The position numbers and the translations under genes were made by a program. This document shows, one piece after another, positions 3,423 to 41,297 of a DNA stretch of 41,929 bases; position 1 is the first letter of the stretch; every line of letters starts with the position of its first letter. The DNA comes from Phoronis australis. Its lineage: Eukaryota > Animalia > Phoronida. The notes beneath the pieces were generated by a model. It saw only the letters and a list, made by a program, of their open reading frames with translations. It had not been told where the DNA came from and ran no database searches. Where the stretch lies: NCBI GenBank assembly GCA_002633005.1, contig NMRA01000614.1, positions 33,636 through 75,564 of the forward strand. The letters run 5' to 3'.

Positions 3423-3590
3423 ATAACGGCCTGCGTACCGTTTCGGGTACGGGTGACATGTCAACGTGTGTTTTTCCTTTCGTCTACAATGGACAGTCAT
3501 ACTCCACTTGCACAGATGTCAGTTACAATCGTCTGTGGTGTGCAACAACGTCCAACTACGACAAAGACGGAAAATGGGGAATTTGTCCAG
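3423..3590 (+). CDS. Gene 1 exon: fibronectin type II domain (phase 1-1)
   Basis: [56 protein letters not shown] matches the FN2 pattern C-x-FPF-x-Y-x-G...C...WC-x-TT-x-NYD-x-D-x-KWG-x-C. Acceptor tttccAG, donor GTagca. Confidence 0.92.
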
Positions 3591-15895: not shown

Positions 15896-17670
15896 AATGT
15901 TTTGACCTCCGAAGTAGATGAAACAACTTCACTTTAAAACACTTGACTTCACTCAGGAGGCGAATTTGCCCCCTCCTTTCAAAGATAAATATTGAAAGAA
16001 ACGTCTTTTTTCAGGCCTTTGGTAGTTTATTTAACAAAACTAAGCTTTTCTATTAATAATTTTCAACATTAATACGATTTCATTAGATTTTAGTTGCCAT
16101 TGTAAAGTTTATTTAACAAATATTACACGTGTTAATACCTCTAGCAATAAGCTTTTCATAAAACATTTACTGTACAGTAGCAGTCGTTTTCAGTTTTTGC
16201 GAAACTTTTAATACCCAATTATCATTTAAATGTCATCTGGCAATTATTTTTACACCAGTGTTTCTGATTGGCTGGTCGAATTCTCAACAGGTAGCGCTTT
16301 ACGCAAACAAATTGGCATGACTGATGGAGGAAGTGTAAAATGTGGTCTGTTGTACAGACAAATCGGTGCTTAAAATTCATGTTCAACAAATGTGAGTCCC
16401 AAAAAATTGTGGTTGCGCCTTTTCGGAGTGCAACTTTCTACTGTCGCTGACTTATGTTTACGTTACTCTCCTGTATTCATATAGTATCAAACAACACACC
16501 AATTAAATCGGCCAGATGTGTGTTTGTTGGACATGTATGTGCTTCAAGCACGCGACTATTAAACATTACTGTAGAAACGAAATATTGGCTGCTACGCCAC
16601 TTGCATGACAAGGCTAAAAATCGCTCATAGTAAGCCATTTTCTCACTTTGTTGTAAAGCTAACCAGTGATAAAGCGCGTGCTACTTAATGGTATCTGCAT
16701 GTGATCTCTACACGTAGGGAATCAGCGAGGGGATTCTCCCAACAACATTTGTTGAATAAAACAAATGAATACATCGTGAACGGTTAATGGAACCGAACGC
16801 ACAAACGGACACGTTGAAGTTTCATATTTTAGCAGACATGAGACCCAGTACAAGGTTGCTTGAAACAGTCTCAAATCGGTACTCAGCTAAGTTCCCTGTT
16901 TTTTGGATTTGTGGGCTTGTGGAAACGCGGATTGTCATTTCTTATGTTGTTTGAGTCTTATACTAATATCTCAATACTAGGCCTATTTAGAAAACGAGTA
17001 AAATCATTTCATGCAACGCCTCTAATTTAAAGACTAAGTCCCTAAATATTTTGACTGAAACAAGGGCTCAATTTTTAGTTTTAGAATTTTTTCAACTTTA
17101 GAAGACTTTGCGGATATGTGGGCTTGGGTAATTTTCGGAATATGGGGGATGTAAGCGAACTCTCCTCGGTCTTCTATTGGACGACTTGATGGAGGTTGTT
17201 AGTCATGAATATCAATATACAAGATGTTAGTTTATATTTGCAGGGCACTGACAGAATGTATTCGCTAATATCCGAGTACGCTTGCACAAATAATGCTGCT
17301 GACGTCATCCAGCGTTAAAATAAATATCATGTGAAAGATAATTACAAAATGTTCTGTCAAATATTTACTATACCCGGCGAACATTCGACCATCACCATTG
17401 TTGTCTGCTTTTCACGTTGGTTACAACAGTAAATTACAAACATAGATCGTAATCTGAAAACTTACCTCGATTTAAAATCAATCATTTCCATTAACTAAAA
17501 GTGTACCGTTGTTTGTCTGAGTTAATTTTCCGCAGTTACAGCACACAAGATTTTTTTAATTCTTTAACCTATTCACCTAATGTAAATCAATAATTTTAGG
17601 TGTAACCGGCATACATATATTGTTGGTGAGCCTGTTTTTTTTTTAATGACTTGGCTGCGTAAGTGCAGGA

Positions 17671-18048
17671 ATGCAAGTTTTTGCGAGTTTTCTGATTTTG
17701 GTGTTTCTGAAAACAGTTTCGTCCCAGTCCTCCATTTATGGAATACCGTTGACTATATGTGCCGTGAACTCGTCCTCTGACATGTATAGAGTGGGTTATG
17801 CACCAGTTCCTAGTTCGCATGGGTCTAATTACTACACGTCGGAGCCTGCAAATAGTGATCTCGAATGCGCACTGCTGTGTAAGCGAGATTTCGGCGTGTG
17901 CATTTCAGCCTTATGGGATCCAAATACGCGAACCTGCCAGCTAAGCAACACCATACTTCGTGCTCAGGATCCTAATTCACACTTTCTGAATGCATCCGCC
18001 ATGGGAAACCTCCAAGCAGTGGCGATGGTTTCACTTTATACAAATGTT
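17671..18048 (+). CDS. Gene 2 first coding exon: signal peptide + PAN/Apple domain
   Basis: MQVFASFLILVFLKTVSS is a hydrophobic leader. SDLECALLCKRDFGVCISALWDPNTRTCQLS matches the PAN core C-x3-C-x6-C-x-S...C-x-L. Donor GTgagt at 18049, phase 0. Confidence 0.85.
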
Positions 18049-21000
18049 GTGAGTACAATAACCCAGGCTTTGTTTTTAAACTAAGGAGGAAACTGGTTAG
18101 CAGCAGTGATAGTAGTCTCCACTGTTGCTCAGTGGTTTGATCTCCGGATTCCTATTGGGAGACCTGGGTTCGAATCCTGGCTTCACCGGTTGACCAAATT
18201 TCTGTCTCAAGTCTTAAGTGACTTTCATGAAACAGGCCGCAGGGGCGGACATTTTCTAAAATGCTTCAAAAAAGGGAGAAGCATTTAAAACAAGCGTTAC
18301 TTATGTGCGAAATACCCGATTATGTCTCACTACACCGTGAGAGAATACTCCTAACATGAATTATTACGTCAATAATAGGTACTTGCAGTTTCTCACGGTA
18401 AGAAAATAGACTGATTTGGATAGAGCTCAGTAAAAGCTAAGACCTCGCTAAACACCAAGATTTCGGAGATAACGTGAGATATTGCCGTGTATTTTAAATG
18501 AGGACATGTAATTTTAGCTACCCCGATGTCTGATTTTGGAGTGGACCGATTAGAAAATAGGTCAGGTATTTGACGACTTTCACACGTGGATTTTGTTTCT
18601 GATCAGGCGGAATGTGAACGCTTTGCAATCAAGTAGATCGAATAAGAACAGAATGGTGGTATGAGGGTCACGTGTGCAGTGACTACCAGAGTGCATACAG
18701 TTATAGACGCGGCGCCGCAGTCTTGTAAATGTAATGACACATCTATGCAAATATTCGAGGAAACCAACAGAAATACGGCAGTTTTTATTTTTTAATTTAA
18801 AATTTGTGGATTGTTGTTTAGATTGTACTTTGCGTTTGCAATTGTCTTTGAGTACATGAAATTATTTTGTAATAGTGGTTAGGAGCCTATTTATTTGAAA
18901 TAAATGATAACTCTTTTAGTAAATTTCGCCTGATCATTTCGAGATAATAATTGAGTCAATGTTGTGCCGTCTCTGTGAAATTACTGCAGTACTTTATGTT
19001 TGCTTTAGTTGAAGAAGGGAGTTATAGATCGAAGCAGCGAGTGTACTGTCCAAAACTGTGCAGCGGGAGCTCACACATGTAGGAGAGAGTGCAGCAATAA
19101 TACTTCTGTATGCATGGGTAAGCCATCGTCTGTAGTACTCGTGTTATATTGGGTGGGCACCAGCTATAACTGCTTAAACCGGAACTAAGACAATCGCCGT
19201 ATTAACAATGGAGAGCTCCGTAATGTCAAATAAGTTAATAATTACAGCGATCACAGGGCCCGGTCTCTAATCTTTGTACTCGAAACGAACTCGAAACTAT
19301 TTTTGGTAATTTCTCTGCTCCTTTTGTGCGAACTTAAGATAATTGGTTATCAGACTGTGCTCGAATACATTATAGTTTATGCATAGGAGTTTCTAGTTCA
19401 AGTTTGCCCTTGAAGACCCTTATATTCGTGCTACAAACTTGAGTAAAAACTCGAAATTTCGAGTTCAAACTCGAACTTATTGCTTTAATATTGGGTTTAC
19501 AAACTGTGAACTAAGGGCAATAAATTATCTACGTAAGTTATTATGTACTCGAGCATAGAATAATAGACACTTATTTTGAGTTCGCCCAAAAGTAGAGTAC
19601 AAAATGCCAAACCTAATTTCGAGTTCCATTTCGAGTAAAAGATTGGAGACCGGGCCCAGGTCGCGTGAATATGTAAACACAACCTACCGAATTAGCGTGA
19701 TGGCGTGTATTCACTATTATACAGTGACTGTCTATGAAGTCAAAATCTTGGTCTTTGGACCCTAAAATGCGATGATAACCACTGAGTTCACGAAATTCAC
19801 GGATGTGGGATATATTTGGACTTTCGATAGTATGTCGGTCACTCATTTGCTCAGTCAGTTACCATTTTTTACCCAATATGTGGTCGTTGAGTTATGATAG
19901 GTGAGATTCCCAAACTGAACAAAAGAACAGTCCATCATGGCGGGCCAAAGCTCCCCTAATGATTACACTTAAAAAGGCGCCAATAGTCACGCGACCCATG
20001 TTCTTATAAACGGGAAGTTCTGGTTTTTAAGTTTTTGCTGTTGAGTATTACGCCTCAAGTCACTTTCATGAAGCGGGTTCCAGCTTTGCCTTTTGGACCC
20101 ATTTAAAAACAAATGTAATGTCAGATTCCGTATATATGACCTAAAGACACTCAAGTTTGTTTACGTGACCCTGGTGCTGTGGAAAGTAGTGGCTTGAGAA
20201 CAAGAAGATCCCGTTCGGCTGCATTGAGAATTATTGACCCCGTAATAAATTTAAAGTTTGTCAAAATCATCTAATAATTTGGTTTAACTAGTCGAAAGCC
20301 ACAAAAATTGAGACTTGAATTAAGGCAAGTTAACACCAGTTGTTTTCCTGTAATCAGAATTTTCCTTCGAAACAGGAACCCGGTGTAGAACAGACATCCC
20401 GGAGTGGAAAACAGACTTCTGCACCTTCAACACAGCGAACCAGCACGAAAAACTCGGACCCTGACCTTTAAAACAGAAACCCCCGGGATCGATTAGGAAA
20501 CCCGCAGGACAATTTTTCAAATTTTCTGAGACCGTTTTTACTTGCCTCAACCTTTGAGTCAAAATATCTTCAAGTACTTTCCAGTTGTTTTATGAATAAA
20601 AATTGTTAACGATAAAACGTAACTTATGTTATATTGATTTTGATATTTGAGTTTTATCGATAAAACTGGTACAACTTGTCTGTGGGCGAATTTCAACGTA
20701 ATCTATTCTCTCAACACGTTGTTTTCTCGGTGAATATTTAGTTAATTTTAGATTATACATTCACAATAGTTTCTCCAAAAATATTTTCAAAAATGAAAAA
20801 ACAAACATATTATTTCGACTTTCGAGTGCCATTGTTGATTAATTTGTTGGGATATGTACGCAACCTCGTAAAAGAAAAACAGCTGATTGCGCAAAAAAAA
20901 GAAAATGGCCAATAGGCGACGAAATATTTAATTTCGAAAACGCCGACGCAAAAGATTGCACCACAACTTAGCAACATAGCAACAACGCAGAACGCCTAAC

Positions 21001-24000
21001 CGTCATCAGTTGTCTAAAATTCTCAGATAGTAAAACAACAACCATTTAAAGTATGACGATTCATTTTCCATCAAACAGTGGTGCGGGAGCGGTTTTTTGG
21101 TCTTGGTATATCTCTAGGTGTCCTGTCCGATCCCTTTGGTTCCTGTTTTAAAGGTCAGGGTTCGAGATTTTCGGGCTGGTTAGCTGTTTAAAATTTGCGG
21201 AAGTCTGTTTTCGACTCCGGAATATCTGTTTTACACAGGCGTTCCCCTGTTTCGATGAAACATCTTGGATATTCTTTGGTCGGAATGAAGCGTTAAGGTG
21301 TTATTTTTTGGCTGGACGAACCCCTTCCTTCTTTGAAGTTCGAATTTTTCATTTCACGTGTGTTTTGGACACGCGTCTCAATTCTAAGGTATGTAAAACC
21401 TATTGCGTCACATTCAATTGGCTTTTCTGTACATTTACATCCAAGTTTGGTATTTAAACGCCAGCTAACTAGGCAAAGGATTTCTATGTGAACAGAATAG
21501 TTAAAAAGTTTCCATGACCGCACATTGAGCCTCTGTTCACTTTTCATTTTAGCTCCACTTGAAAGCTGTGATCAAATCCCCGTTTCCAATATTCGTCATT
21601 GGTACTGGAAGTCTTGGGAAAGTGATGCTGATCATGACGTATTGCTGGTAAGGAGTCTCTGGTAGAGCGAACCATGCACCATACGAATAAACTGATGTTT
21701 TATTTTTCACAAAAACAAATTATTCTTTCTATAAATTTGTTAAAATAGAGGCAATAAACCAAGCCTTGTGTCAAAAACTAACTTATTATTCATATGACGT
21801 AGACCGTTACAGTTTCCTTTTGTTTTTTACTCCGATAAGAATCGATTAAGAAAGACTGATAAGTCCTCAATGCGTCGGACCAAGCCATCTAGGTTGCTTA
21901 ACTAGAGGCGAGTTTCATGTATATACACATATAGAGTGAGTCGCCAAGACAGCATGGCCGTAACAGGAATTCTGGGCTGGACTTTCATCGAAACCAATTT
22001 CAATGCGAGGATAAAAAGTTGCTAATGTTGCTCGACGAAAGCAACTACGCCTCGTATGAAATTTTGTGCTTGTGGTTTTTGTTTGTTTTTGACTTATTAT
22101 AGTGATTCTTATAACAATACTTATAATAGCAATAGCAATGTATGTCTTGTTTTGGAGATTGTCGAAAGCACTACTCTTCGTATCCGGTTTGCACGCATGC
22201 ATACAAGTGTAGTTGTAGAGAGAGTGCGTTTTGCTACAAATACATTTAATGTTTTATAAAGTAAATCATGTGGTAGAGAGCGCGCTGCAAACCAAAAAGT
22301 GGAGGCGAAATCATATTTGATAGATTATCCAAATGATGTACATTTGAATCAATCGCCATGCGAATGTTTTTGAAGCCTTTAATGAGCAGTGCGCTTGCGA
22401 CACTTCCGGGTTCATCTTAGCGCTCTGCACAAAACAGGGACACACCTTTCAGCCATAGGTCATAAAAAACAAATTTCGTTCTTGTTTTTAAGAGATTGAT
22501 TCTTCCTAGAGATAATGTTCAGCCATGAAATGAAATATAGCATAAGCGCTTAAGTTTTGTACGATCGAGGTGCATGTATTACGATAACGCGTACATGCTA
22601 TTTAACCTGAAGCTCCCATCTTCCTTGCAGTTACTCATGAACCTAACAAAATGTAAAAACAGCCAAATCTAACGGAAATCATCACCGTCACAAATGAGAG
22701 CTGTCCACGGGTTTTGCCAAGCGTTCGTGTATTTTTATGAGCTAAACTTAGCTCATTGGTGTACGAAATGGTCATTCAAATCGATTTTTGAGTCCTACCT
22801 ATGCCATACATTGTTTATATAAATTAACTTGCATGATTTGCTTTGAAATTTCATGATTTCAATTTGATAATTTTCAACACAATTTCGGTAAATAACCCCA
22901 TTTTACCATTTACCATTATTGAAGTCAATTTTTACAGAATATCACGTACAAGAAACGGTACAACTTCACAAGCCTCAGAGTGCAATATCGCGGAACTTTC
23001 ATGGGTGCCCACAATGAACAAAATGCGTGTTCAAGGTGGTACTTTACATTCAATGACAGAGAGTGCCAGACACCAGGATCTATAGAAGCTGTGTGGGCCT
23101 CGTCAGTGAAACTTAACTACCGCAGGAGCGGACGTGGTAAGTGCGGTCACCCTAGCAACCACCGAGTTTGTGATCCCCCAACAACACCCCATATCAGTCA
23201 GCCACAGGTGTGCCCCTCGTTTATTAAAACATTATTTTCCCACATAATGGAATTATTTTCGTTTCAACCCAGTTTACACTTACAAATGTCTACGGATATT
23301 GGTTATTATTGGTGCGTGCTGTCTACACTTTCTTTTCTAATAGAACAATTTAACAATTACGAGCCAAAAAAACACCAAAACCGCCATTAGCACCTCGCCA
23401 AATACTTCACTGAAGCTACTATGGTCCGTCCAAGAATCAAATTTTAGATTCATTCTCTTATCGCCTGTAGAACTGCATTGAATTCAGGGCCTCAGGAAGC
23501 GGGGAGGCCATCGATGATATTCAAGTGGTTACCCTTTTTATGTTTTTATTGACAAAATTTTAAGGGTCCACTCTAGGATAAAGGGCCCAAAGTTGGACTA
23601 GATTACTTCTAGTTTCCTGTAGTATGGGATGTTCACTTACTTAGAAACGTGGTGGGTTGTTTGTAGACGTTTCCACCTGGTCCGCCAGGTCTTTGTCAAT
23701 GAATGAGGGATTTCCCGCGTTTCGTTGGTTAAGAATGTTTGAATACATGGGAGGTAAGTGGTGGCCTCGGTCCCAATTCAAGAGGGGTGCTGAATGCTGA
23801 TGTTTATTGACTCTTTTAGCTTGCCAGCATACCAGTGTTGTTCTTTGGCTAGGATCCTGGATGATGCAAGAAAGATAGAATGCCCAGTCGCCAATAGACC
23901 CAATTCACACCGATTTTAGGCTGGGCGCGCTCATCTGCCGAAATGCTGCTTGTTCCCCCCCCCTCCGAACTCAAAATCCTGGATCCGCCCCCGCTACGGG

Positions 24001-27000
24001 TTGAAATATTACAATTTTTCTTTCCAAAAAGGACAGGGCCTTTAATCCATGAATTTGGGGCCCAATATCGGCTTTATTCTCCCCTCAAAAACATTGAAAT
24101 ATCACGCGAAATTCCCTCCCACGAGGCATAACAATTCCCCTAGTGAAAAATCTCTCTGAGTTCACATCACCTGTAACCAGAAAGGTGACAATTTTTAAGA
24201 GCACAAAAGGCTACTTTAAATTGAGACAGAGCCTATGAGAGCTTGCAACAGGGTGGGGGTGCTATTGATGGTGATCGGGAGGTAGATTGTTCCCGCCCTC
24301 ACTCAGCGAAAAAAATCGCCTCTCAGTAGGCACTGGCACCTTTCCCCTCGGATGAACGAGGCTCCTGATAACTATGATTGCTTTTCCAGTTAACTGAAAT
24401 TGAGTTCTAAAACGAGGTCATGCTTTGGACGAATGAATTACGTGTTTTAATTTTAAAATTCAACTTGGTCCAGATTGATATTTGAAACCTAGCACATGAA
24501 ATAGACGTAAGAATTATTACAACCAAGAAAGCAGAATTGATGGTCAAATAATTTTTATTTTCAATTACGAGCCTGTTTTTTATTTTAATTATTTTAATTA
24601 AAAGTATATTTAATAACATCAATTATTCTTTCAGATCAATGACAAATCAACTGTTAGTCCCAATGCTGGAGTGCATAGGATCAGGCTATGCTAGATGTTA
24701 ATATTCTTGATCAACAAATTAAACCAGATGTGACTAATTGCACATGACTGCCACCACTGTCGAATATGTCCTTAACTCGTCAACAGATGACCTGGATCGT
24801 GTAGAAAGTATTTTAATCAACAGTTTACAAGAAAAAACGTAACCGTGCATTCAGCATAATACCTAATCCATAACACTACTATCACCGCAATTTGGTCACA
24901 TTTACTTTTCATGTTTAGAACCTAGTTTTCCGAAAAAAATTAAACTCTTTCGTCAGACAACTCTTTTGCGCCTTAACTTGTTCTCTAATGTAATTTTCTA
25001 CGTCTCTGTGGTTAATTGTCGACACATTATTAAAATTCAATATCCAGGTTGGATTCGAAAGACCGGCAATTTAACTCACGCAATGTCAACTTCCGCTTTG
25101 TTTATCGCAGTGAGCTTCGCTTTGGATTTTAATGTCCGCCGCGTGAATTGGGTCTATATGTGTTCCGCCACAGCTGTATCTCTTTTAAAAATGGTTACTC
25201 TGAGTTGTTGGTAAGGATTTCCCACATGTGTTAAACATTTCTGTCGAGGCTACCATTGGGGTTATCGTGTACATGTCGAACGAGTGTATTCAAATACTCG
25301 CAATAATATACAAATACATTACAGCGTTCCGTCGTTCAGTAGCTTTTCCAGACGTGCTGAACGTGCGATAACATCTGGCTCTTTTGTTAACTGCCCAGCT
25401 CAGTCTTTTGTCCAATATGATAACAAGCAGTCCAATTATCTACCAGGCTTCAAAGGAAACGTACGCTATCACCGAACGCGTATGAACTCAGTCAAACCCA
25501 GTGCGTCCGTTTGGACAGAATAGATTGTCTTAACTTCTGTTGTAGTTGGGCGATTTTGGTGATTCAAAAACGGAACATGATCAGCATTTGACGAGAAATT
25601 CAGAAATGTTATTGGTTTAAGCTCAAATACGTTATAACTTAACTTTCATTTTTATCAGCTCAGGCCAGTCGGTCTTGATACAATCTGATCGGAGATTAGA
25701 GCAATTATCGAACAAAAGAGCGCAGGCCCTCCAACCATAAATGCCAGTATGGAGTTAATCAGGCATGTAAGATATTGGCTACAGGGTAAACTTCCCAACT
25801 TGTTGTTGGGCTATAGAATCGAACGAGTGGGGAGAAAAGGAAGGTCGCCGTCATGTTTCAGCTTTTTTGAGCTCAAGTTCAACTTGTGAACCGTTATAGG
25901 TACCTCGGAAATCACCAAAAATACACCTTACGCCCAATCTTCCATTTTCCCCCGGTTACCCGTCAAAAATCTGCGAGCATGGGGAAAATTCTATAACATT
26001 CCGTTTTGATCAACAAATTTGTTGGTTTCTGATTTACATGTTTGTGTATCTACGAAAACCGACAGGTTAATAGTTCATTTTGGCAATTACAAGCTAACCT
26101 TTTAAGAAATGATTACGATTCAGGGAATTAAGTTGAAGCCTGAATTTGGAAAAACTCTATAATCCGATCCTTAAATAGTAAAGTGCACTTGGACGCTTTT
26201 TGCTTATCTAAAACTAACTCTCAAAGACATTGATGAAATTTGGACACTTCCTAAAAATTTACTCACAATTCAAATGACAATAAATGCATTGCTTTTTCAA
26301 TTCGGTTCAAGATTTGTTGTTTAAACTCACTAACAGGTGATCGAAAAGGAATTAAGTCATTAAATCAAGATAAATGCATTGCTCATGGATTTGATTGTTG
26401 GTTTCTGATTTATATGTTTATGTATCTATGAAAATGGACTGATTGAGAGGTGATTTTTTGACAATTACAAGCTAATCTTGTAAGAAATGACAATGCTTCA
26501 ATGAACTTAGTTGCAGGCCAACTTTGGGAAAACTCGACATTAGAAAAGTACACTAAACGAGGTTTATTTATGTGAAATAAACCTCAAGGAAATTGATGAA
26601 TTTCGGTCAGCTCTACAAAGTGTCCCAAAATGTTCTCACAATTTAAATGACAATAATTTTTTTATTGGCTTAGGAACTAGATGTACTGGATCGAAAAAGA
26701 AGTTTAAGTACTTAAACTCATTGGTCATCAAATTGCAAAGGTTTTCTTTGCATTCTCTTGATGTTTTGTTTCCAGTAGTATGTCGCAATGAATTTTTGTA
26801 CTTCAAAATTGAATCGTTTGCTTGCATTTCCCCTGCATACTACACACACGACATGCGCGCACCCAGCTTAAAATATAGTGGGCTCGATTTTTTGAGGATG
26901 TGAACTAAAGAAAAAAACGGAATACGAGGTTCTTTCAGGGCTATGAATTGTGCATACACTGATTTTCTCCCGTAGTGGACTTCTGTCTCGTTTTTCTCGG

Positions 27001-30000
27001 ACTTTGTTTCTTTGAGGCGGACCTTTTTTCCCATTTTTTGAGCCCCGAGCCATCCCCCTGGGTGCGCGCATGCATAGCACACCCACGTTAAAAATAAGGT
27101 GTAACCATGCAGTAGGCCTGCGTAGACTCTCAGTTACCCACGGGAACTGAATTTGAACTCCAGACGTTAAAGTGTGGACATTTTTGGGACACACTCTGTA
27201 TCTGTTCCCCTAGCAGCCAGTAACTGGACTACCGGCCGAGCTTCATCAAGGGATTCTAAAACGGCCACAATGGCACTCATACCCGGCACCGACCTCGGGA
27301 CCTCACCTTTCCAGAAATTACTTCAAAGAATGGCCATAATAAAATGAAATTGTCCCCGAAACTGGATCATAATAAAACAAACCTCGACCTTCAACCCCGA
27401 CCAGAAGAATAGGTACGAATCCACGGCTGGAACCCAACTATAATTACTTCAGGTAGCTCCCACCTACCCGTCAGTGCGCTGGACCTAGACCCATTCTTAC
27501 TCTCCGTGAAACTGTGTTGGTTCACGGTTACTCAAATCCCGGCGGCTGCATCCCCGGTATTAACTCCACCTACATGTATGGCGGACGTGGGGGGCTCAGT
27601 ACAAACTTGGTGACATCCAGAGAACGCCCCCAATTAATGTTTTCCTTCCTACGGGCCTGATCCGTTCTTAATTCTAACTGGTTTCTCGACTTAGACAGGA
27701 TTGATAGCGTCGTACTAAGCCATTTTGTTGATCCTGGTCGCGAGTAATGACGAACATTCCAAGCTAAAGAATTATCTCTAATTTGAATATGGAGACCAAT
27801 TAGTGGTCTATATCAAAAGCTATCTCTTTGACAACCAGCTTTAAGTTGCAACAAAACGGCAGATTATTTCACTGACACTATTATCTTTCTTTTCACTTTG
27901 TAGTCGATGGTATCTGCGAAAACCTGCCAGCCGGAGATGTATCCGTTAAGTTTAACATCGGTCCGTGCTCTAATCTTAGTGTGTCGGACAGCTATACGGG
28001 TTGGAAGTCTGGTGATTCAATTACTGTGGAGGAAGACGACCTCCGCCACGGTTCAGGTAGGCTTCTCTCAATTGGCAATGTTTAACAGCGCCATCTCTAG
28101 GAGAGTGGCACTATGCAAGGACGGAGGTTTCACAAGCATTGTTGCGCGCGTATAAAGACTCCAGATCCGGAGTGCATGGTTTCATCTCCTGGTGATACCA
28201 TGACAATATACAGACTCCGATTAGTGCTGGTTTCATCAGCTAATGAAACAAGGCATGAATGCATGACTTACATGTATGGTTTGTTTATTGCCATGATTGC
28301 ATTAGACAGTGGAACTTTAGCGGCGCACGACTACACTGAACCTATAGAGCACGGTTTTGATATTACACCTGCCGTTGCCGATGATCGTTCTTTACTACAA
28401 ATACTACTGACTCATTAGAACGTCATTTTCAGTCTCTTGTAGGGACCAGTGTTTATAGCCATTTTCACTCCTCGCTTTTTGGCGGTTCCTGTATTCGTCT
28501 AGAGTCTCCTTTTTCCCATCAGAACCGCGTTAGTAAAATTCGCTCCGTCCATTTCGAAAATGGCTGACGAGTATGACTAATTGAGGAGGCAGAGTTTCCT
28601 AGTGTACGTGATAGGTGCCCTCTTTCTTTACTCGAGGTCGTGTGTTCGACTCCCACTGGGCCACACTAGCGCTAAGCCATTGAGTCAAGTTTCTAGCTCC
28701 TCAGCTCTATTTTAACTATACATTAATAAAACACAAAAATGGTTCCAGGTGATCAGTGTAATGGGCCCACATGCACGGCCTGAGCACGTCTGGTACTACG
28801 TGTACCAGATCGCCTGTGATTATATTTTATGACTTATTGTCAAAATCGGCCAATCACTAAGAAGGGTTATGAAACCATCGTTTTGGTAAAGTGGTTGTAA
28901 GTCTTGTGTATTCACTACTTTTTTGTTTGAGAACGAGGTGTTGTGTACAAACTATAATGTTTGTGCATGTTTGGAACACTCGCGCTTTCACGTTTGCGTT
29001 GTTAAAACTGATGCTAAAACGAGTAATTGTGTCCCAAACAACAATGCGCAACAGTCGTTTTTGTATCGCCACCAAAGTGTGTGTCAGTGCCATGGGCGCA
29101 CCCAGTTGAACAAGCCCCCCAAGTTGGCGAATTGGGCAAAAAGGTCCTCCTCAGTGAAACAAAAAGTCCGAGTAAACGAGACAAAAGTCCACCAAATCCA
29201 CGGGAAGTCGTCGCGGATGCACAATTCCTGGAACAGAACCTAGTGGCCGTGTTTATTTTTTGAGTCCTTGTTGATTTGCTCCAGTAAAAGGTACGCATAC
29301 TGAAAATTCGAACCTCCCATATTTTAGGCTGGGTGCGAGCGTGAGTGCGTTTAACTCACACAGAACACGAATCACGATTGTGCAATGTAACGATTTAGCC
29401 TCATGTCGTTGCAATTACAGTATAAGACATCACTTAAATTACATCAGTGAGACCCAATGATATCTTCTAACCAGTCGTAAAGCCTAAACATTTCTTCGCG
29501 TTACCCACGCAGATTCATGATCCCTTCTGTACATGGAACTGAGAAAGAGTGCGTTATTAATGACGCTGCTAGCTTCGTCCCTTCGCCGCCAGGAGGTCAG
29601 TTGTCGGTTATTGGCAAAAATACTGCCCGTTTCCTGAGTGGGAGGGACAGATGAACGGAATGATTGGTGGAAGGACGGGCGAACAAATGGACCGAGTTAG
29701 GAATTGGCAAGCTCGGGCACAGGTAGTGAGGCAACAAGGCCAGGATGCAGAAAGGGAAGGCCGAAAATGAGGTACATGTATAGAATACGGCCAGGTAGGG
29801 TGACAGACAGACAGACATACAGGCAGACACATACGCACACGGGTAGACTCACAGACAAACGAGCAGCAGACTGATATACAGAAAGGCACAGACGAGTAAA
29901 AGAGAAACAAAGTAGAGGTGGGGAGAGGAGGGCAGGAAAGAAGGCGAAGTGGCCTTACATGTAGTAACAGTAGCAGTAGCAGTAGTACTACTAGATATGA

Positions 30001-33000
30001 CTTAGGTTTTGTAGGGGTAGCGGTAGAAGTAGCAATTGTACCTAACAGAATTTTGTGATTGACATTGAAACAAAATTTCTGAACCTCCAAGTTTCTCACT
30101 TGTTGTTTGTAGGATTTTGTCGCGCATTATCAAGATTCAACACAAGACAATATGTTTGGAGAGAGGAAAGCAACACTACTAACGGACTTCTTCGTGTGAG
30201 TCATTTTGGTCAACTGTAGGTGGTGCTGGGTCTTTGTCCAAAGAAAACTTTATCTATCGCCATCTGGCCACACACATTATTTTCAATGTGTCGCTGCAGT
30301 ACCGGAAATGCGCTATTGCTTGCATTAATTGGGTATTGTTTGAAAAAGCACGAACTAGATTTGTCTACGTTCACTGCTTCTTTAGTTATTAAACTTTATT
30401 AGTTTATATTTTTTACTGTTTCAGTCGTTCGATTACTACAAGCGCGACGTTGGCACCGCAATTCACGTGATCTACCAGACAACTTTTCGCGCGGCAGGTC
30501 ATGGCTCCGTTCGATATTCTATCAAGTTCAACTCGAATGAGTGCACTTCCCCTGGTGAAATAAGCTCCATGGTTGCACACAACAATCAGTTCTTCACGCA
30601 TGCCATCGATGATGGAACAAATATGGGTAATTCAACACACTACATGTTGTCTGATAGTCAGCCAGCTAGCTGTATGAATACTATTGTCAGCGCCGACAGA
30701 CCTTGAAATGTCATACAATTAACTCCGGTAGTTCTGCTCGTCACTTCGCTGTGAAACTTGCATCAACATGTTAAGCTAAAGACGTCGTCGTTTTGAAAAC
30801 AGTACCGCACACTCGTGACACGCCCTCCGCCATTTCCTAAAATTTCGCTACACCTCTCGGGAGATGATGACAGCTTTGCAGCAGCAAAATTTGTTTTGAA
30901 ATTCCGCTTGCTGATATTAAAATACTAAAAACTTCGTGGATGAAGAACAGCTGATTGAATAATCGGTGGAGAAAGAAACTGGCCGATAGGTGACAGAATA
31001 TTTCATGGCGACGAAAGCCGATGCAAAAGACCGCTCCACAACTTTAGCAGCAGAATAACGGTAGAACGCCATTTTTTTCCAAATCGGTAAATAATTTGAT
31101 TTACTGAAGGAAAAGTGTAGTTTTCAGCGACACTGATATTTTATCAGATTTTGTATGGTCAGTTATTACCCACATCGGCGCAAAGCTGATAATTAGTATA
31201 CAGCTTTGCGCCAAGCCTAGTAGTCTGAAAGCCACAAGGCGGACTTCAACGAAGTTTATAAAAGCTGAAAACGTTCAATGTCTGTTCTTCGACAAAGTCG
31301 CATCTGGGTGTAATTTAAGACTTTAAAGCGTCCCTCCAACTTCAGTTACCCTTCCCCCACCGCTTGAATCAAGTCTAGTCCACACACTTCGATTCTAAAA
31401 TACGACACAGAATACGACTTTTGCATACAACCATTTGAACATGTCCGTGTGTATAACCGATTTTATTCCCGTGTCTGCACACTCCGATTTTTACTTACGA
31501 TTTCGTATACGACTGTTGTAAGCGACCGTCGTACCTGACTAATTGAACTGATTAGACTGGTGTTCCGAGTGGACATTTCCAGCTAAAAATTCATATCCAT
31601 TTTTTCCACTGAAATAAAGCGTTCAGATTTTGCTTCGATCTTTGTTCGACTCAAGATGTAGATGAAGAGTCGTGTGCGAAAAAATGAGTGTGTGGACTGG
31701 GTTTATTTCAAGAGCTCTTTGGCGTTGATTCTGGGAATCAATCACGAATCGACTCGCTGTCTCAGTGACTTCCGTTCATTTTTAACGCATGCCAATCCCT
31801 TATAAAACATGGAAAATCGTCCAGTGGATCTACCGGTACGTTACACGACACCAACATAGTGGCTGAACAAGATGACAGTAAAACTGCGCTGTTGAGATCA
31901 GTCGAAATACAGTCTTCTGAACGTAATCAATCGGTTTCTTTGTTTTTCACCGTTATCCTCGTTGTCAGACTACAGTAGTTCGATAACGACGTTGTTTCAT
32001 TCATATACACACCAGTGGCGCGCGGTCACATGGGTCAATCATGGGCAAAAGAGATACAAGTCCGATCTCAGTAGCACTCGCACAAACCTTCAGCACCCCC
32101 ACATGCTCTCGAACACCCAGTAAAAACAGTTGTCACAACTTCTTCGGTGTGTTTCAGTTGTGGAAACTGGTTAAGTTAACGCTCTCACAGTAAGGTTCCT
32201 ATCAATGGAAGTTCCTCTACGGCCTGTTATGATAAAGCTTTAATATCCAACCCTGCGTTTACCGTCTGAGAATTGCTTTGTATTGCAGTTGTCTGACGAT
32301 CAAAAATATAAGGTAATGCTTTTGGCATGGCGCTTTCAGTGATTTACGCTTACATTTACATTGCTAAAAATTCTAGTAACCCCTCTCCTTTAAGAAATTC
32401 TCGATCCGTCAGTGTATTTTTATCAATGCAACCAGCCTTGGTCATTATATTTGAAACACTTACTCCGTTTACACCTCTGCACCGTGGTTATTCATTGTGT
32501 TTCCCTTGCAGTTTCTGGAATGTGTGACAACATCGAGGCTGGTCACGTGGTCATCAGTATACACATTGAAGTGATAACAGAATCTCCCGACGGTTATACC
32601 GGTTGGAATGCCAACAGCCGTTTGGTTGTGGAGGAAATACGCTACGATCAGGATATCAGCGCAGGTAGAAAGTCACATTATAACAGCGGTCCTAGTAAAT
32701 AGATGTTACTCAATCTACCACATCTTAACAGGCGAAGGACACTGAATACCAACTGAAACTGACCTCCAAGAGTTGTTTTCAATTTGTTATCTGTGTCAGT
32801 ACTGATTCACATGTACTGCTGTGCCAAACTTGTCACGCCCCCTGCCAGTGGTCGTATCTTACCAATGCATGGACGGAACGTGCGGGTCCTAACTCTTACC
32901 ATGTTTTAACAACGTGGGATTTTAGAGCCTTTTTACAAATTAACCAATTCCTTGTCATTCTCGCTCCATCAACCTATCATTGCTGGGCAACTCGGTATTT

Positions 33001-36000
33001 ACTAACTCACGCATCACGTTCAACTTCAAAATATGCGAACTAAAAAAAACACATTTTGTCTTTGTCAACTCTGCTCGTCTTGTTCACCAGAATTTGAAAC
33101 TAGCGGATCGTTTTCATGCTCTCCAAACGCTAGAGAGTTGTCGTCTGATGTTTCCTGTTCTCAGAGGTCTGTTCTGTGGTTTCCCGCTGCATATCTGATA
33201 TATATCGTGGCAAAGTGGTCTGACGAACCCAAAATATTCACTCTTAGGTCGTTAGCTTTGTCAGTGCGACTGTTTTATACAAGTGCAATTCTATCTCTTG
33301 TAAATTCCTTTTCCAATTTTCCACATAGTATTTTTAAAATGTAATAAGCGTTTCACGATTCACTGCATGAGAAATTCAGGCAAATTGAAATACTATGGGA
33401 ATATGGCGAGTCACGAAATTTTCTACCAAGCAATTTCCTCGTATGCTGAATTATCCTCGAAAATGAGGTTATTTGTTGTCTGATGCTGTTGTGTTTGCAA
33501 AAGTAAAATCTGAAATTTTTACTTTTTGAGACAGGTAAAACTGCAGAACTTCTTGCAGTCAACTCGATTAATTTTAAACACCATAATCTAATCATGGTTT
33601 CTGTCTTATACATCGTTTTTTTATTTTCGGGAAAATAATGTCTTGAAAAATTTTTAATTTTAAGAGCCCCCTTATTACACATGGCAAAAACTCTTACCGC
33701 ACAATTAAAAAATTGTTGACTCTGTAACTTCTTCAATTTTTTACGGGCCTGCATACAATGTGTCCACGCATTTTAAGTCCGCTGGGAAAACGTTCTGCCA
33801 ACTTTGTTGCGAAAAGCAACACTGCTTTATCAGTACCTGCAGTATTCTTTTCTTGTTTTGTTCTCGGGAAGGTCATTTCTCGACTTAACGACGCCACGTG
33901 AGACGATTTGGCACGATATAGATCATCCTCAAGAACACAACTTTCTGTGTTCACGACTGACTTAACTGCTACTGCGTTCCTCAGAGTGAGGGTTATTTGT
34001 AGACTATATGAACAAATGTTCAAATCATTCGTTACTAGTGGAAAGAGGTCGCTGCACAAATATTCCCCATGGAAATATGTTGTGTGAGTTATTTAATTCG
34101 GGATGTGAAGAGGACGAGTAGCACCTTGTGTTAGTTTGCAGTGCGTTCCAAGACCTTCGAGTTAAGTACTTAAGTGATCGTCTCTGTCATTCTCCCACGA
34201 CATCTAAATTTGAATCTCTCGTGAGAACTCCGGATATCCTACTTCTAAAATTCGTCCATCATGCTCTCAAACGTCACAATTTATTATCGAGTTTGTAACG
34301 CACCTGGCAATGATCTGTCTTGTAAATGTTACACTTTGGGCCTAATGTCATGTGTATATGTTTCAATCAATCACTCTAACTTTAGTGTGCACCGATCATT
34401 AGCGGAACTAGAATGTCGCAAAGGGGGGCCAGAAACCAGAATTTTCGAAAAAAATGTCCACCTAGCCACTAAAAAACAACTCGGCGAAGGCGTTCTTTTG
34501 TTTAGTCGTTGCCACAAGGGGCCCGGCCCCCTGGTCCTTCTCAATCTGCCTATGGTAGCCCCCTCATGCTCCTGTCATACTCCGTTACATAGCTAAGCTC
34601 TGTTAAATTCGGTCTCTTTAGGCTCTGCAGATGACTTTGCCCGGCTTGACAACCAAGACAATACAAAGATCTCACGCCACCTGTCGTATCCTACAAGTTT
34701 TTTTTTACTTGTTGCTGCCGTGTGTTGAGGTTCCATTTGTTAGATGTTCCCACTCGCTTCTAGAAGTTGTCTGCAGTAATGCAGCCTGAGAGTCATTGGA
34801 GTTCAGCCACCGGTTGCTTTACACTCCTAACTTGGGACTCAACCATGTTACTTCTCTCCCCATTTGCAGATTGTAGAAACAACGATTGTCTTACGTAATA
34901 GTTCCATCTTCATACGTGTAATTACACTGTCAGGCATTTAGCTTTGTTACCCACTCAGAGTAATCTCAACGATTAACATTCTCAATAATGAAAATGAATG
35001 GGATTCTTTTCATGCAACGACAATAGTTTAAGGTTCCTATGTATTTTCACCGAAACAGGCTCAGTTTTTAGATATATCATAAGGAAATTACATTAGCCAA
35101 AGAGAAAACGATGGAAAACAAAAACAGTTTATGAGTAAACTAAGACACAAATTCACAGAAGAATACTCGAGCCCCTGGTAAGAGTTTTGCGATGTGTAGC
35201 AAAACTGGTTTACTCCTCCTAAAAGATTTCTAAAACATTAACTTAAGTTCGTTTGTTCTTTCACAAAAGATTTAGATTTTGTTATAAAGATAATTTAATA
35301 TCTGGATAACGGATCTTGGTCATTTCAAGCATTCGGAAATTTTGCCTTAGCTGGGTATAGCGTATCAGGTAAGATTATTTACTCGTATTGTACATTCGTG
35401 ATTTGTGGTTAAGAGGTTCTGTTTCTCTCAAGGTAGTTGTACTCGATAGTATCATTTTGAACATTAACATTTTTGATAATTCGGGTAAAAAGGAGGTCTT
35501 TGGGAACTCTCGCTAAAAGCGTCTGATGCCTGCTGACCAGACGTGCTCCCTGTCGTCTTATAAAAATCACACATCTGAACGCGGTGGTTAAATTCAAGCG
35601 ATCTAACGTAGCTAGTTTTGTTCCTAAATAACACACCCACTTTTACCAATTTTTGCCATTTTTATTTGAGGCTAGAAAGTACTAAAACCAGTGCTCACTA
35701 CCGGGGCCCAATATCTATTCTTTTTACTCGAAATCGAACTCGAAAACATATTTATCCCTCTCTACTCTGCTATAGTGCGAAATCAAGGTAAGTGTCCATT
35801 ATTCTATGCTCGAGTACGTCATGGCTTACGTGGATAACTTTTTAATCCTTGTTTGCACTTGATAGCCCCAGCATCAACTGGCTAAGAGTTCGAGACTGAA
35901 TTCGAAATTTCGAGTTTTTAGTCGAGTTCATAGGCCAGATATATGGAACAACGAGTGTAAACTTGGACTGGAAACTCATACATGTGTATGCACACACGGT

Positions 36001-36293
36001 GCTCGATCACAGACTAAAAAGCTATTTATCATGAGTTGGCACAAAAGTAGAACAGAAAGTAAAAAATATAATTTCGAGTTCGATTTCGAGTAAAAAGATT
36101 AGGTATCCCAGATCTTGGTCTCCTGTCCTCGGCATAATGACTAGTGATCACGCAATCTGTATGTCAGATTTAAGCTTATATTTCAGTGATTACTACAGAC
36201 GGCGCTGCACATCGGTTGCCAGAACATAACATCCACCAATTTTTGTCGAGAGCCTTATCCGATGGCACCCAAATTGGACCTATCAATGGCATG
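17671..36293 (+). CDS. Gene 2 (3'-partial, 9 coding exons seen): signal peptide + PAN/Apple + EGF-like Cys module + three tandem CTHRC1 C-terminal-like domains
   Basis: Exons 17671-18048, 19009-19117, 21553-21647, 22938-23136, 27904-28056, 30113-30195, 30425-30626, 32512-32664 and 36187-36293 total 1479 nt (493 codons) with consistent phases and no stops. Equivalents of gene 1's last two exons were not found before the window end. Confidence 0.85.
18115..18290 (+). mobile_element. tRNA-derived SINE-like element, family B
   Basis: A-box ttgctcagtgg (18125-18135) and B-box GGTTCGAATCC (18167-18177); no convincing acceptor stem. Confidence 0.5.
19009..19117 (+). CDS. Gene 2 exon: short Cys-rich EGF-like module
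   Basis: LKKGVIDRSSECTVQNCAAGAHTCRRECSNNTSVCM (5 Cys). ctttAG/GTaagc; phase 0-1 bridges the neighbouring exons correctly. Confidence 0.75.
19257..19656. mobile_element. MITE, PIF/Harbinger-like, long TIRs and CAG target-site duplication
   Basis: Left ggcccggtctctaatctttgtactcgaaa and right tttcgagtaaaagattggagaccgggcc are inverted repeats; CAG flanks both sides (19254-19256, 19657-19659). Confidence 0.8.
20320..21296. mobile_element. Non-autonomous DNA transposon with ~170-bp imperfect inverted termini
   Basis: About 20365-20500 (ccggagtggaaaacagactt...ccctgacctttaaaacag) is inverted at about 21120-21255 (ctgtttttaaaggtcaggg...aagtctgttttcgactccgg); TTAA near both ends. Confidence 0.7.
21553..21647 (+). 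CDS. Gene 2 exon: first third of CTHRC1-C-like domain 1
   Basis: APLESCDQIPVSNIRHWYWKSWESDADHDVLL; NIRHWYW parallels NIRQYVW and NIHQFW in the other repeats. ttttAG/GTaagg; phase 1-0. Confidence 0.8.
22938..23136 (+). CDS. Gene 2 exon: middle of CTHRC1-C-like domain 1
   Basis: NITYKKRYNFTSLRVQYRGTFMGAHNEQNACSRWYFTFNDRECQTPGSIEAVWASSVKLNYRRSGR, closely matching CTHRC1 [24 protein letters not shown]. tttacAG/GTaagt. Confidence 0.92.
23640..23900 (-). mobile_element. Penelope-like retroelement 3' fragment (GIY-YIG endonuclease C-terminus and terminal region)
   Basis: Minus strand LLATGHSIFLASSRILAKEQHWYAGKLKESINI-(frameshift)-LNWDRGHHLPPMYSNIL matches the PLE tail TGH.I......IL..E..W..R..KE.I.I....LNRD.G..LP..Y..L. 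Confidence 0.75.
23666..23699 (-). ncRNA. Minimal hammerhead-ribozyme-like motif (U3-A8 core variant) of the Penelope fragment
   Basis: Minus strand UUGACAA-ag-ACCUGG-cgga-CCAGGU-g-GAAA-CGUC: core boxes, stem II hairpin and palindromic ACGU stem III. Stem I is poorly formed. Confidence 0.5.
26019..26656. repeat. Diverged direct duplication, ~260-bp unit, offset 376 bp
   Basis: ttgttggtttctgattta.atgttt.tgtatcta.gaaaa ... caattacaagctaa ... ctcacaatt.aaatgacaataa starts at 26019 and 26395. Confidence 0.8.
26852..27072. mobile_element. MITE with CATGCGCGCACCCAG termini, copy 2
   Basis: Perfect 15-bp TIR catgcgcgcacccag / ctgggtgcgcgcatg. Confidence 0.8.
27904..28056 (+). CDS. Gene 2 exon: end of CTHRC1-C-like domain 1
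   Basis: VDGICENLPAGDVSVKFNIGPCSNLSVSDSYTGWKSGDSITVEEDDLRHGS. ttgtAG/GTaggc; phase 1-1. Confidence 0.9.
28583..28830 (+). mobile_element. tRNA-derived SINE, family A copy 2
   Basis: Shares gaggaggcag, gttcgactcccactggg, ttgagtca, ctcagctc, caggtgat and gtctggtac blocks with 10022-10250. Confidence 0.7.
29091..29343. mobile_element. MITE with CATGCGCGCACCCAG-like termini, copy 3 (opposite orientation)
   Basis: catgggcgcacccag ... ctgggtgcgagcgtg; agtgc on both flanks. Confidence 0.7.
30113..30195 (+). CDS. Gene 2 exon: first third of CTHRC1-C-like domain 2
   Basis: GFCRALSRFNTRQYVWREESNTTNGLLR; paralog of 4035-4117; ttgtAG/GTgagt. Confidence 0.88.
30425..30626 (+). CDS. Gene 2 exon: middle of CTHRC1-C-like domain 2
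   Basis: [67 protein letters not shown]; paralog of 4461-4662. Confidence 0.9.
31364..31711. mobile_element. MITE-like inverted-repeat element
   Basis: agtccacacact (31377-31388) and agtgtgtggact (31687-31698) are a perfect 12-bp inverted repeat, extendable imperfectly on both sides. Confidence 0.6.
32512..32664 (+). CDS. Gene 2 exon: end of CTHRC1-C-like domain 2
   Basis: [51 protein letters not shown]; paralog of 5257-5412, one codon shorter. Confidence 0.9.
34080..34375 (+). mobile_element. 5'-truncated LINE 3' end (ORF2 zinc-binding tail and short 3' UTR)
   Basis: CELFNSGCEEDE*HLVLVCSAFQDLRVKYLSDRLCHSPTTSKFESL resembles the LINE motif C..C....EDE.H....C..Y..LR.KY; followed by a short tcaa-repeat tail. 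Confidence 0.7.
34397..34554. mobile_element. Short GC-rich MITE, related to 39701-39859 and 100-154
   Basis: cattagcggaact ... ggccccctggtccttctcaatctgcctatg; 3' end resembles ggccccctggcccacccctaaatccgcctatg near 123-154. Confidence 0.5.
35703..36110. mobile_element. Second, diverged copy of the 19257-19656 MITE family in opposite orientation
   Basis: TIR-like tttttactcgaaatcgaactcgaaa ... tttcgagttcgatttcgagtaaaaa; internal attctatgctcgagtac is the reverse complement of gtactcgagcatagaat in copy 1. Confidence 0.75.
36187..36293 (+). CDS. Gene 2 exon: linker and first third of CTHRC1-C-like domain 3
   Basis: [36 protein letters not shown]; paralog of 8048-8154; tttcAG/GTaaat. Confidence 0.88.
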
Positions 36294-37159
36294 GTAAATG
36301 GATTTATAGTTGCTATTCAAATGTAGTGTACCTTCTGTTTGAACAGCGAGTTTCCAAGAAATTGAGCAAACAAAATTTGTCCGTACAAGTCAGTGTTGAG
36401 AGGGAAAATCCTAATAATTTGGTTGTAGGTTTATATCTCATAGAAAATTTTAAAAAAAATTAAAGAAAAAAACGGTAGTCAAATCTGATTGACTTCCTCA
36501 ATGCAGGTTCAAAGTTTCAAGGTTTCAGGTACATTCATTTTGAGTGAAACGTTAAAAGCACTGCCTAGCGCACCTGTCAGTGGATCACACTGATGTAAAG
36601 ATGAGCTGAGCATACGTTTGAAATGTATTTAAAGTTGCAAGACTCGGGTTTGGCGTAATTTCCTGTTTTATACATGGAAACAAATCACGATCTTTCACCC
36701 GGATACGAAAACATTCCCACAGCCGCGTGTCTTTGCATTCTGTAATAATAATCGCGAAAAAATAATCGGGGTCCCCTGAAAAATTTGATTCGCGTTAGCG
36801 CTTGAAAATGAATTTCATTCGCCTTACTCGCCAAAATCGAGCCCAGAAATAATAAATTTCTATATCAGTGTGATCTCGGAAATTAGGAGCAAAACATATA
36901 GATTGGTTTGCTTATTTTTTGAGTATGATATGATTGTACTATTCCTTTCCAGATGTATGTATTTTTGCATGCACGTATGCATGTATTATTTATTATTTAC
37001 TATAATAATGATATGGATGTGTCACAGAATACAATACAAAAACACTTTTAAGTTTAAAAACTTCACATGCAACACATTCCCATCCTCTTGGGCTTATAAG
37101 TCACCTAAACAGTTACGCAAAGTATATATGTACATGTAGGGAATATATGTATTTATGTA

Positions 37160-37290
<131 letters not shown>

Positions 37291-39700: not shown

Positions 39701-39859
39701 CAGTGACGGATTTAAGGGCGAGCCAAGGGGGCCACGGCACCTCCTAAAATTTTCCCAGATTCAATGTGGCAGTTCGGGGTGCGAATGTCTGACGGGCAAA
39801 ATCGTGCCTAAAACTCTGCTCTGACCCTCTCCTAACTCAAAGTCCTGGATCCGCCCCTG
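39701..39859. mobile_element. Short GC-rich MITE with CAG.G.CGGAT termini
   Basis: cagtgacggatt ... gatccgcccctg; related ends at 100-154, 23960-23993 and 34397-34554. Confidence 0.6.
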
Positions 39860-40231
39860 TTTATTACACAACCATTGATACTTGACTCTCCTCTGATGCT
39901 GGCAGGCTACCTATGTAATAATTTCTCTTCCATCAAGCCGTCCAGAGGACAGATGTTGCTGTTCGTGCAATAACCAACCAGGCGCTTCAGAAGCCATAAA
40001 CCCCTTGACTGTTTAAACAAAACGAACAGACGTTTGGCGTTTCTACAGACTTCTGTGGCATATCTGCAATAGGTTGTGGGACTCAAATATTCCAAACAAA
40101 TTGAAACCAGAGCACTTACATCTACAATTTCAGTCAACAAATGGCGAGGAAAATGTATATCATAAAATTCTATAACCGAAAAAGTTACATGATGGTGGCA
40201 ATGCATCAAAGCAGGCGAAGAAATCTGAGGA

Positions 40232-41159
40232 AACAAACATAATGAAAGCGCTCCGAGGAGCGACACTTGGCGAAATTAACAGAAACGACGACGATAGAGA
40301 TGATGACGAAGAGGACGAATGTGACGACGATGTTGGCGATGATGAACAATTCAAGTAATGATAACATAAGAGACCAGACATAAGATAGGCTACAGTGTTG
40401 AACGACACTTGGCGAAATTAAGTGAAAAGACGACTACGGAGATGATGACGAAGATAACAAATATGATGACGATGGTGATAATGCTGAACAACATCATAAC
40501 ATTCATATGAAGCACTTAGATGTCATAAATCAGCAAGAAATAGGCTACACTCTTGCCCAATAGAAACTAAACCAACATCAATGCAGCAAGAGCGCTCAAC
40601 AAAGGAACAGCGCTATCAGAAAATCTCAAATAATTCGAAAAGTAGACGTCCTAGCGATGAATGGAAAGTATCTTCTGAAAGCCCGTTCAAAACTCTATCA
40701 ACACTGTTGGTATCGCTTAATTCCGTAAATTTTTCAAAAAAATGGAATTTTGCTTTTTTTAAGAATTTCAAAGTTGAATAACTCGAAAACAGTAAGTCTG
40801 AGAAAAAATTGTTACAGGTCATTTGAACGAGTATACCTCAAAAAATCCACATGCAAAAATTCACGTCTTTTTCTCTTCCCGTTAAAAATCGAACTCCAGC
40901 ACGACTGAAAATGTGTCAACATGCGCCAGATCCGCCATCTTGATATCAACTTCCGGTTTAATGGCTCTGTACAATAGCATGTCATAAGAAACCAACAACT
41001 GCAAAAATTCGAAGGAGTTGGTCCTATAATTCGCCCTCTACAGGAAAAAAACGTTTTAGGCCAAAATCGAGGTGCGCATGCGCGATCGCCGATATTAAAA
41101 AGAAACAAACTTGATGGAAGAGCAACATACTTGGCGAAATTTATTTCGCCAAGTAATAA
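40232..41159 (-). mobile_element. Helentron-associated / DINE-1-like non-autonomous rolling-circle element
   Basis: Minus-strand 5' end TTATTACTTGGCGAAAT followed at once by its inverted copy (41128-41155). The 3' end has the inverted sub-TIR (40265-40276), hairpin CGCTCC-nn-GGAGCG (40249-40262) and a T-rich tail. Internal GAT/GAC simple repeats. Confidence 0.65.
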
Positions 41160-41297
41160 GGCAAACCTGCTCCCTCGTTCTGTAGCAACATTGGGCTCCT
41201 TAGGTTCTAATTTGTATATAATTGGTTGCATTCCTTGACAGTTCGAACAAGTGATGTGTGTTTCATCGATCCAAGCACTAGTTGTAACTTGGCGAAA

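Follow-up and report, generated by a model that had tools for sequence, protein, structure and literature searches.

Tandem CTHRC1-type heads without collagen in Phoronis australis, predicted in relatives to close as a single-chain C1q/TNF-type pseudo-trimer

Cthrc1 is defined as a signal peptide followed by collagen and one head, and the head has been modelled as C1q-like (PMC7058181). The legend of Fig. S5 of that paper mentions Symbiodinium proteins with up to three heads, and the paper describes an intron in the 5′ portion of the domain as conserved among animals. The C1q-like trimer of the head has so far been a modelling inference (PMC7058181). In our sequence comparison the head had no relative among solved structures. 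On the C1q side, HcC1qDC6 is a three-domain C1qDC protein whose domains bind bacteria, LPS and peptidoglycan (PMC5519582).

We analysed a stretch of 41,929 nucleotides from Phoronis australis (contig NMRA01000614.1; hereafter the window), which carries two genes with CTHRC1-type heads, gene 1 and gene 2. Gene 2 is read here as encoding a protein without collagen that is likely secreted and combines a PAN-like module, a Cys module and tandem CTHRC1 heads (A and B whole, C likely finished outside the window), the three heads being predicted to close as one single-chain C1q/TNF-type pseudo-trimer; we give this reading a probability of roughly 0.7. Gene 2 and gene 1 are real genes and members of an unnamed invertebrate family. 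Gene 2 comprised nine exons within 17671-36293 on the plus strand, all with AG/GT ends and consistent phases, giving a stop-free frame of 493 codons (P numbers denote proteins compared in this study):

17671..18048, plus strand: exon 1, ATG, hydrophobic signal-like start and PAN/Apple-like module; 5 Cys columns in common with relatives
19009..19117, plus strand: exon 2, five-cysteine module; all 5 Cys align with P0002, P0003, P0158 and P0159
21553..21647, plus strand: exon 3, start of CTHRC1-type domain A
22938..23136, plus strand: exon 4, middle of domain A; PF25815, E 8.3e-11
27904..28056, plus strand: exon 5, end of domain A; PF25815, E 2.1e-9
30113..30195, plus strand: exon 6, start of domain B; 59% identity with gene 1 exon 4035-4117
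30425..30626, plus strand: exon 7, middle of domain B; PF25815, E 3e-4; 67% identity with gene 1
32512..32664, plus strand: exon 8, end of domain B; PF25815, E 2.6e-5; 80% identity with gene 1
36187..36293, plus strand: exon 9, linker between B and C plus the opening strand of domain C; GT donor at its end; 69% identity with gene 1 exon 8048-8154

PF25815 (CTHRC1_C) was matched by eight of the 16 exon pieces scanned with Pfam, five of which exceeded the 27-bit cut-off alone, and the gene 2 matches lay in exons 4, 5, 7 and 8. PAN_1 (PF00024) matched exon 1 weakly (E 5.8e-4, 20.1 bits against a cut-off of 21.4), and the Cys module of exon 2 had no Pfam match. The most hydrophobic 19-residue windows of the protein (1.4, hydropathy only) were at the N-terminus, starting at residues 1–7; judged from its sequence, the protein is likely secreted. 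A transmembrane anchor was ruled out by the hydropathy scan. Each head spanned three exons with intron phases 1-0-1-1, the A-B and B-C linkers measured 16 and 19 residues, respectively, and heads A, B and C were mutually 26–29% identical. The two internal introns of each head presumably match intron positions of human CTHRC1. The longest Gly-X-Y run in the spliced frames of both genes was two triplets, and the collagen that defines Cthrc1 proper is absent; runs of at least four within the window were confined to a (TGG)n repeat at 41305-41442. Neither a collagen exon nor, between gene 2 exons 5 and 6, an FN2 exon turned up when looked for, and no C1q family was among the Pfam matches of the 16 exon pieces or of 28 relatives. 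The first-pass annotation had read the frame as signal peptide, PAN/Apple, Cys module and three CTHRC1-C-like domains without Gly-X-Y, and had expected InterPro or HHpred to return three CTHRC1 matches plus PAN. The open nine-exon frame, heads A and B, the Cys module and the lack of collagen agreed with it, with a signal-like start and PAN_1 just below its cut-off, but the threefold count was not confirmed within gene 2, for which only the first exon of head C lies in the window, with no match of its own.

Gene 1 is a same-strand tandem paralog of gene 2, with seven exons seen from 3423 to a stop at 11122 and its 5′ end outside the window. The visible order was FN2-B-C-stop, i.e. two tandem CTHRC1 domains:

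3423..3590, plus strand: fibronectin type II (FN2) exon, phase 1-1; PF00040 (fn2) over 3425-3589, E 3.2e-20; adjoins the first visible CTHRC1 domain (head B)
4035-4117, 4461-4662 and 5257-5412, plus strand: domain B, three exons; 70% identity with gene 2 domain B
8048-8154, 8724-8925 and 10968-11122, plus strand: domain C, three exons, stop codon 11120-11122; PF25815, E 3.2e-13 and 2e-3

In all, four exons of gene 1 matched PF25815 (E 2e-4, 2e-6, 3.2e-13 and 2e-3). The FN2 exon had been missed in the first-pass annotation, whose statement that the third repeat is complete in gene 1 and ends at a stop without a transmembrane segment was confirmed, no 19-residue window exceeding a hydropathy of 1.08. 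Between genes 1 and 2, dN/dS was 0.28 over 179 codons, exon 9 included. Cysteines at the positions of P0002 C359 and C416 are retained by all six aligned relatives and missing from the B heads of both genes (30425-32664 and 4461-5412), a joint loss of what is likely a disulfide.

A HMMER profile from the four middle exons, searched against protein representatives, gave 375 matches, of which the best 150 were used; a word-index protein search with the same exons gave no match. The top matches among these best 150 of 375 included P0002, a Logan protein of 611 aa, and Lingula anatina RefSeq models annotated merely as ‘uncharacterized protein’. PAN_1 above cut-off together with three PF25815 stretches and no collagen was found in P0002, P0003, P0004, P0152, P0158 and P0159, and P0154 and P0157 had three PF25815 stretches with PAN weak or absent. 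Full-length relatives with PAN and three domains included six Lingula records and P0002; the Lingula anatina loci with the PAN-(CTHRC1_C)3 order were as follows:

LOC106162620, LOC106165752, LOC106180315 and LOC106178942; partial, LOC106175063 and LOC106180490

Gene 2 aligned with P0002 in one block (residues 62-473 against 64-465, 31% identity, E 1e-52) and colinearly with the Lingula proteins P0003 and P0004. It matched the PAN-(CTHRC1_C)3 relatives in the order of the PAN-like module, the Cys module, heads A and B and the fixed linkers, the lengths of 16 (A-B) and 19 (B-C) being identical in gene 2, P0002, P0003 and P0004. A quick tree of 64 domains by 151 columns, in which deep branches were weak and which fixes no root and no order of events, placed head A of gene 2 with the first heads of the relatives (SH-aLRT 93) and set the bacteria-type triplets and the nine-head P0156 apart as a separate group (SH-aLRT 97). 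The ESM Atlas gave no usable match for P0002 or P0003. The earlier suggestion that this architecture belongs to no recognised named family stood in that the Lingula and P0002 proteins are unnamed and we found no literature description; as a qualification, the architecture already exists in Lingula RefSeq, and three-domain dinoflagellate proteins are noted in a supplementary legend of PMC7058181. A term search of that paper's supplement did not return two Lingula accessions of the family.

Head number was counted across 159 proteins, 26 of which had at least two domain matches. Fifteen of the 26 carried 3, 9, 15 or 21 adjacent heads (P0006 among them, without most of its first head); these counts are not independent, since eight of the 15 come from three Lingula clusters and paralogs and the search favours repeat-rich proteins. 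Three were fragments (P0010, P0011 and P0013) with longer cluster mates of 21, 9 and 3 heads, two had collagen plus four heads (P0001 and P0087), three had heads more than 100 residues apart and one was a single split domain. The real exceptions to threes were P0005 and P0008, with two adjacent heads each. In the three long arrays, identity at lag 3 was 61–71% against 34–38% at lags 1–2, a level reached by 0 of 5000 shuffles for each array, and the duplication unit was therefore the triplet. Bacteria-type proteins carried the same head triplet on fibres. Two further proteins were of note for their make-up: P0019 (525 aa) begins like a TRAF protein, with RING and TRAF zinc fingers, and continues through a hydrophobic stretch to a CTHRC1 head in place of the trimeric TRAF C-terminal domain, and P0012 (Nematostella XP_032230469.2) is an apparent annotation fusion of two genes, since it contains two signal peptides that belong to different Nve-Cthrc1 genes (Table S1, PMC7058181).

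Structure models were made on relatives (~31% identity to gene 2), with P0002 as the closest full-length stand-in. AlphaFold2 with a 10-sequence alignment gave pTM 0.71 and a mean pLDDT of 69 for P0002; residues 1-155 were mostly below 50, the PAN region being poorly modelled. Foldseek ranked engineered single-chain trimers first. By VIA-align the model matched 5HZF with Z 24.8 and rmsd 3.5 over 343 aligned residues in the model range 156-605, which covers all three domains, followed by 5HKJ (Z 24.7), 4DOU (24.3), 5KCA (23.2) and 4ZCH (20.6); these top five were all single-chain trimers and the next row was a single domain at Z 6.9. No PDB chain was matched by sequence at E 10. The nearest single-domain folds were Chlamydia Pgp3 and the TNF-like lectins PLTL and BC2L-C-N. 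With ESMFold2, run without an alignment, P0002 150-446 and 452-607 docked with a score of 0.65 against 0.00 for the best of three controls; at least 89% of contacts were shared between runs, the partner pLDDT was at least 81 and head 3 touched both A and B. The docking mark is reached by 51 of 78 solved pairs against 2 of 108 mismatched ones (in eukaryotes, 39 of 65 against 2 of 126). Both predictors have seen C1q/TNF trimers, so that resemblance to known structures may account for part of the docking score.

In the sponge Oscarella pearsei, protein P0001 has the order collagen, head 1, head 2, FN2, head 3, head 4, thus also carrying an FN2 module between heads. Its model (pTM 0.55) matched 4DOU with Z 21.5 and rmsd 4.3 over 332 aligned residues, and single-chain trimers covered the range 280-784, i.e. 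heads 2-4. In this model heads 2-4 close as a trimer and head 1 beside the collagen stays free, a possible 1+3 design. The P0001 model thus indicates that a triplet can close with an FN2 module inserted after its first head; by analogy, the FN2 of gene 1 would occupy the same place if a head A lay upstream of the window.

The heads might instead sit like beads on a string and trimerise between chains, three chains forming three stacked homotrimeric rings, with the single-chain model a prediction artefact. Canonical CTHRC1 is reported to be trimeric (PMC7058181, introduction), a predictor given one chain can show intrachain contacts only, and conservation at the predicted interface positions equalled that at the other positions (gene 2, 31% against 31%; gene 1, 33% against 33%). 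Homotrimers, however, would permit any head number, yet the counts were 3, 9, 15 and 21 with period-3 similarity; moreover, head 3 docked onto both other heads when supplied as a separate chain, and the four-head sponge model left out head 1 and closed heads 2-4. We therefore regard interchain rings as very unlikely. Closure within one chain, as the first-pass annotation had proposed, has good support from models of relatives and from the rule of threes: the P0002 model matches single-chain C1q, adiponectin, Cbln1 and BAFF trimers, head 3 docks above controls and the arrays come in threes, all of it computational. The three heads of the relatives are predicted to be jelly-roll heads packed about a three-fold-like axis, as in the C1q/TNF structural superfamily. 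The accompanying idea that the triplet replaces the collagen stalk fitted gene 2 and the PAN relatives, which are collagen-free, but not the triplet-bearing P0001, P0087, P0017 and P0155, which retain a short collagen.

Within the window, domain C of gene 2 consisted of its first exon only (35 codons). Profile scans found no further CTHRC1-like exon in 36294-41929 and no domain A exon upstream in 1-3422; across 1893 six-frame segments, E <1e-9 was reached by the eight middle and last exons already identified and by nothing else, with no other segment below 0.3. Since gene 2 shows A, B and the first exon of C and gene 1 shows FN2-B-C-stop, the ‘x3’ given for gene 2 is, within the window, a composite. 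The two remaining domain C exons of gene 2 would need an intron of more than 5.6 kb; the longest seen in gene 2 was 4.77 kb and the gene 1 intron at the equivalent position, between the first and second exon of domain C, measured 569 bases.

RNA from four runs of the same species label (X1–X4) was mapped on 17300-37000. The confirmation of gene 2 junctions by RNA-seq that had been called for was not obtained, none of them being among the 15 of 76 joints listed across the four runs. Most reads derived from repeats within introns; over the bins of exons 5 and 8, depth was low and confined to one direction in X1 and X2 (1.38 and 1.46; 0.89 and 0.80) and zero in X3 and X4, and the bin of exon 1 had zero depth in all four runs.

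This low RNA depth, together with the missing domain C exons in 36294-41929 and domain A exon in 1-3422, would suit a reading in which gene 2 is an incomplete gene of two whole heads plus a stub and gene 1 one of FN2 plus two heads, the copies decaying or needing a head from another chain; P0005 and P0008 do carry two adjacent heads, and reading through exon 9 meets a stop 10 codons on. Exon 9 nevertheless retains its donor and, against its gene 1 counterpart, showed pN 0.20 and pS 0.43. All nine gene 2 exons are open and phase-matched, gene 2 already contains introns of 3.5–4.8 kb, and the available sequence just ends with the window. P0005 ends inside the B-C linker, as expected of a truncated model, and the sponge protein with FN2 between heads 1 and 2 of its triplet was still modelled as a single-chain trimer. 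We consider incompleteness unlikely; domain C of gene 2 is likely completed beyond 41929 by two further exons.

Other features of the window lay outside the exons. An inverted repeat pair (19267-19661 and 35700-36102) had 73% identity, and the intronic stretches 19271-19927 and 24527-25840 drew many divergent RNA reads in both directions; these are probably dispersed repeats, remains of mobile elements. On the minus strand, 833-1432 is an open frame of 199 codons containing a CxxC motif; it may be what is left of the end of a non-LTR retrotransposon. The long stretch 3′ of gene 2 exon 9 contained a (GT)n microsatellite at 37156-37294 and a (TGG)n one at 41298-41435.

For the origin of the gene 2 architecture, we propose that the three-exon head unit of an ordinary Cthrc1-type gene was tandemly triplicated. 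The three heads would then have closed on each other within one chain, so that the collagen stalk became dispensable and the heads were free to diverge (26–29% identity), yielding an asymmetric head with three unlike binding faces. The N-terminal module, PAN in gene 2 and FN2 in gene 1, may have been swappable and would aim the recognition head.

The shared C1q/TNF fold alone shows no function. The most likely use, to which we assign somewhat less than even odds, is that of a soluble recognition or adaptor protein that would bind glycans or matrix at the surface of cells or microbes. A protein built as described here could instead work like vertebrate CTHRC1, being secreted to modulate Wnt/PCP or TGF-beta signalling and matrix remodelling, and not as a surface-recognition lectin. 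FN2 domains bind collagen. The heads belong to the same domain family (PF25815) as vertebrate Cthrc1, for which Wnt/PCP, TGF-beta and matrix activities are reported (PMC7058181, introduction). Against this, the several divergent Lingula paralogs and the tandem pair of the window with swapped front modules resemble a diversifying recognition family, bacteria-type proteins bear the same triplet on fibres and the nearest monomer folds include lectins. We hold signalling to be the less likely but still a real alternative to surface recognition.

Taken more broadly, the CTHRC1 head may be a self-sufficient trimer module that was fused into single-chain triplets several times independently (in the animal family, the sponge, the bacteria-type fibres and probably dinoflagellates) under a rule of 3n heads, or 1+3n with collagen, and the window genes would belong to a family of invertebrate recognition proteins not described before, in which the head is asymmetric with three faces and the PAN or FN2 front can be swapped, parallel to bivalve multi-C1q proteins; we judge this wider picture to have an even chance of being right. 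A natural single-chain version would offer independent evolutionary support for the CTHRC1 trimer. Being monomeric and free of collagen, such a protein should also be simpler to produce and to solve, providing a natural tool for the structure and ligand of the CTHRC1 head. A second domain family would then have arrived at the arrangement of three heads per chain known from bivalve C1q proteins, and the 3n or 1+3n rule would give a simple way to spot truncated or fused gene models.

In comparison with known systems, the Lingula and P0002 proteins share the module order, cysteines and linker lengths of gene 2, but at only 27–31% identity; the B heads of the window lack one cysteine pair and gene 1 has an FN2 module. 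Neither PAN plus three CTHRC1 heads nor a single-chain CTHRC1 trimer was found described in the literature searched, a search with subscription journals largely outside its scope. Cthrc1 (PMC7058181) is likewise of secreted type, with a CTHRC1 C-terminal domain and a predicted C1q-like trimeric head, whereas the window family is without collagen and has three diverged heads per chain with PAN and Cys modules or FN2 in front. In the parts of PMC7058181 considered, animal proteins have one head each, multiple heads are mentioned only for Symbiodinium and no single-chain trimer reading is given. The engineered single-chain trimers of C1q (5HKJ and 5HZF), adiponectin (4DOU), Cbln1 (5KCA) and APRIL/BAFF (4ZCH) have the same fold and three-domain arrangement as the P0002 model (Z 20.6–24.8), but are laboratory constructs with 7–8% sequence identity. 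A natural analogue of the proposed design is found in the bivalve smultiC1q and three-domain C1qDC proteins (PMC6835236; PMC5519582), which are secreted, collagen-free and usually built of three tandem trimer-type globular domains; these are gC1q domains, whereas the window proteins have no C1q Pfam match. Because the window exons and their relatives lack such a match, the CTHRC1 triplet would be a parallel invention from a different sequence family. Gene 2 thus falls outside Cthrc1 proper, having no collagen, and outside the C1qDC proteins, having no gC1q match, and likely works like a multi-C1q protein.
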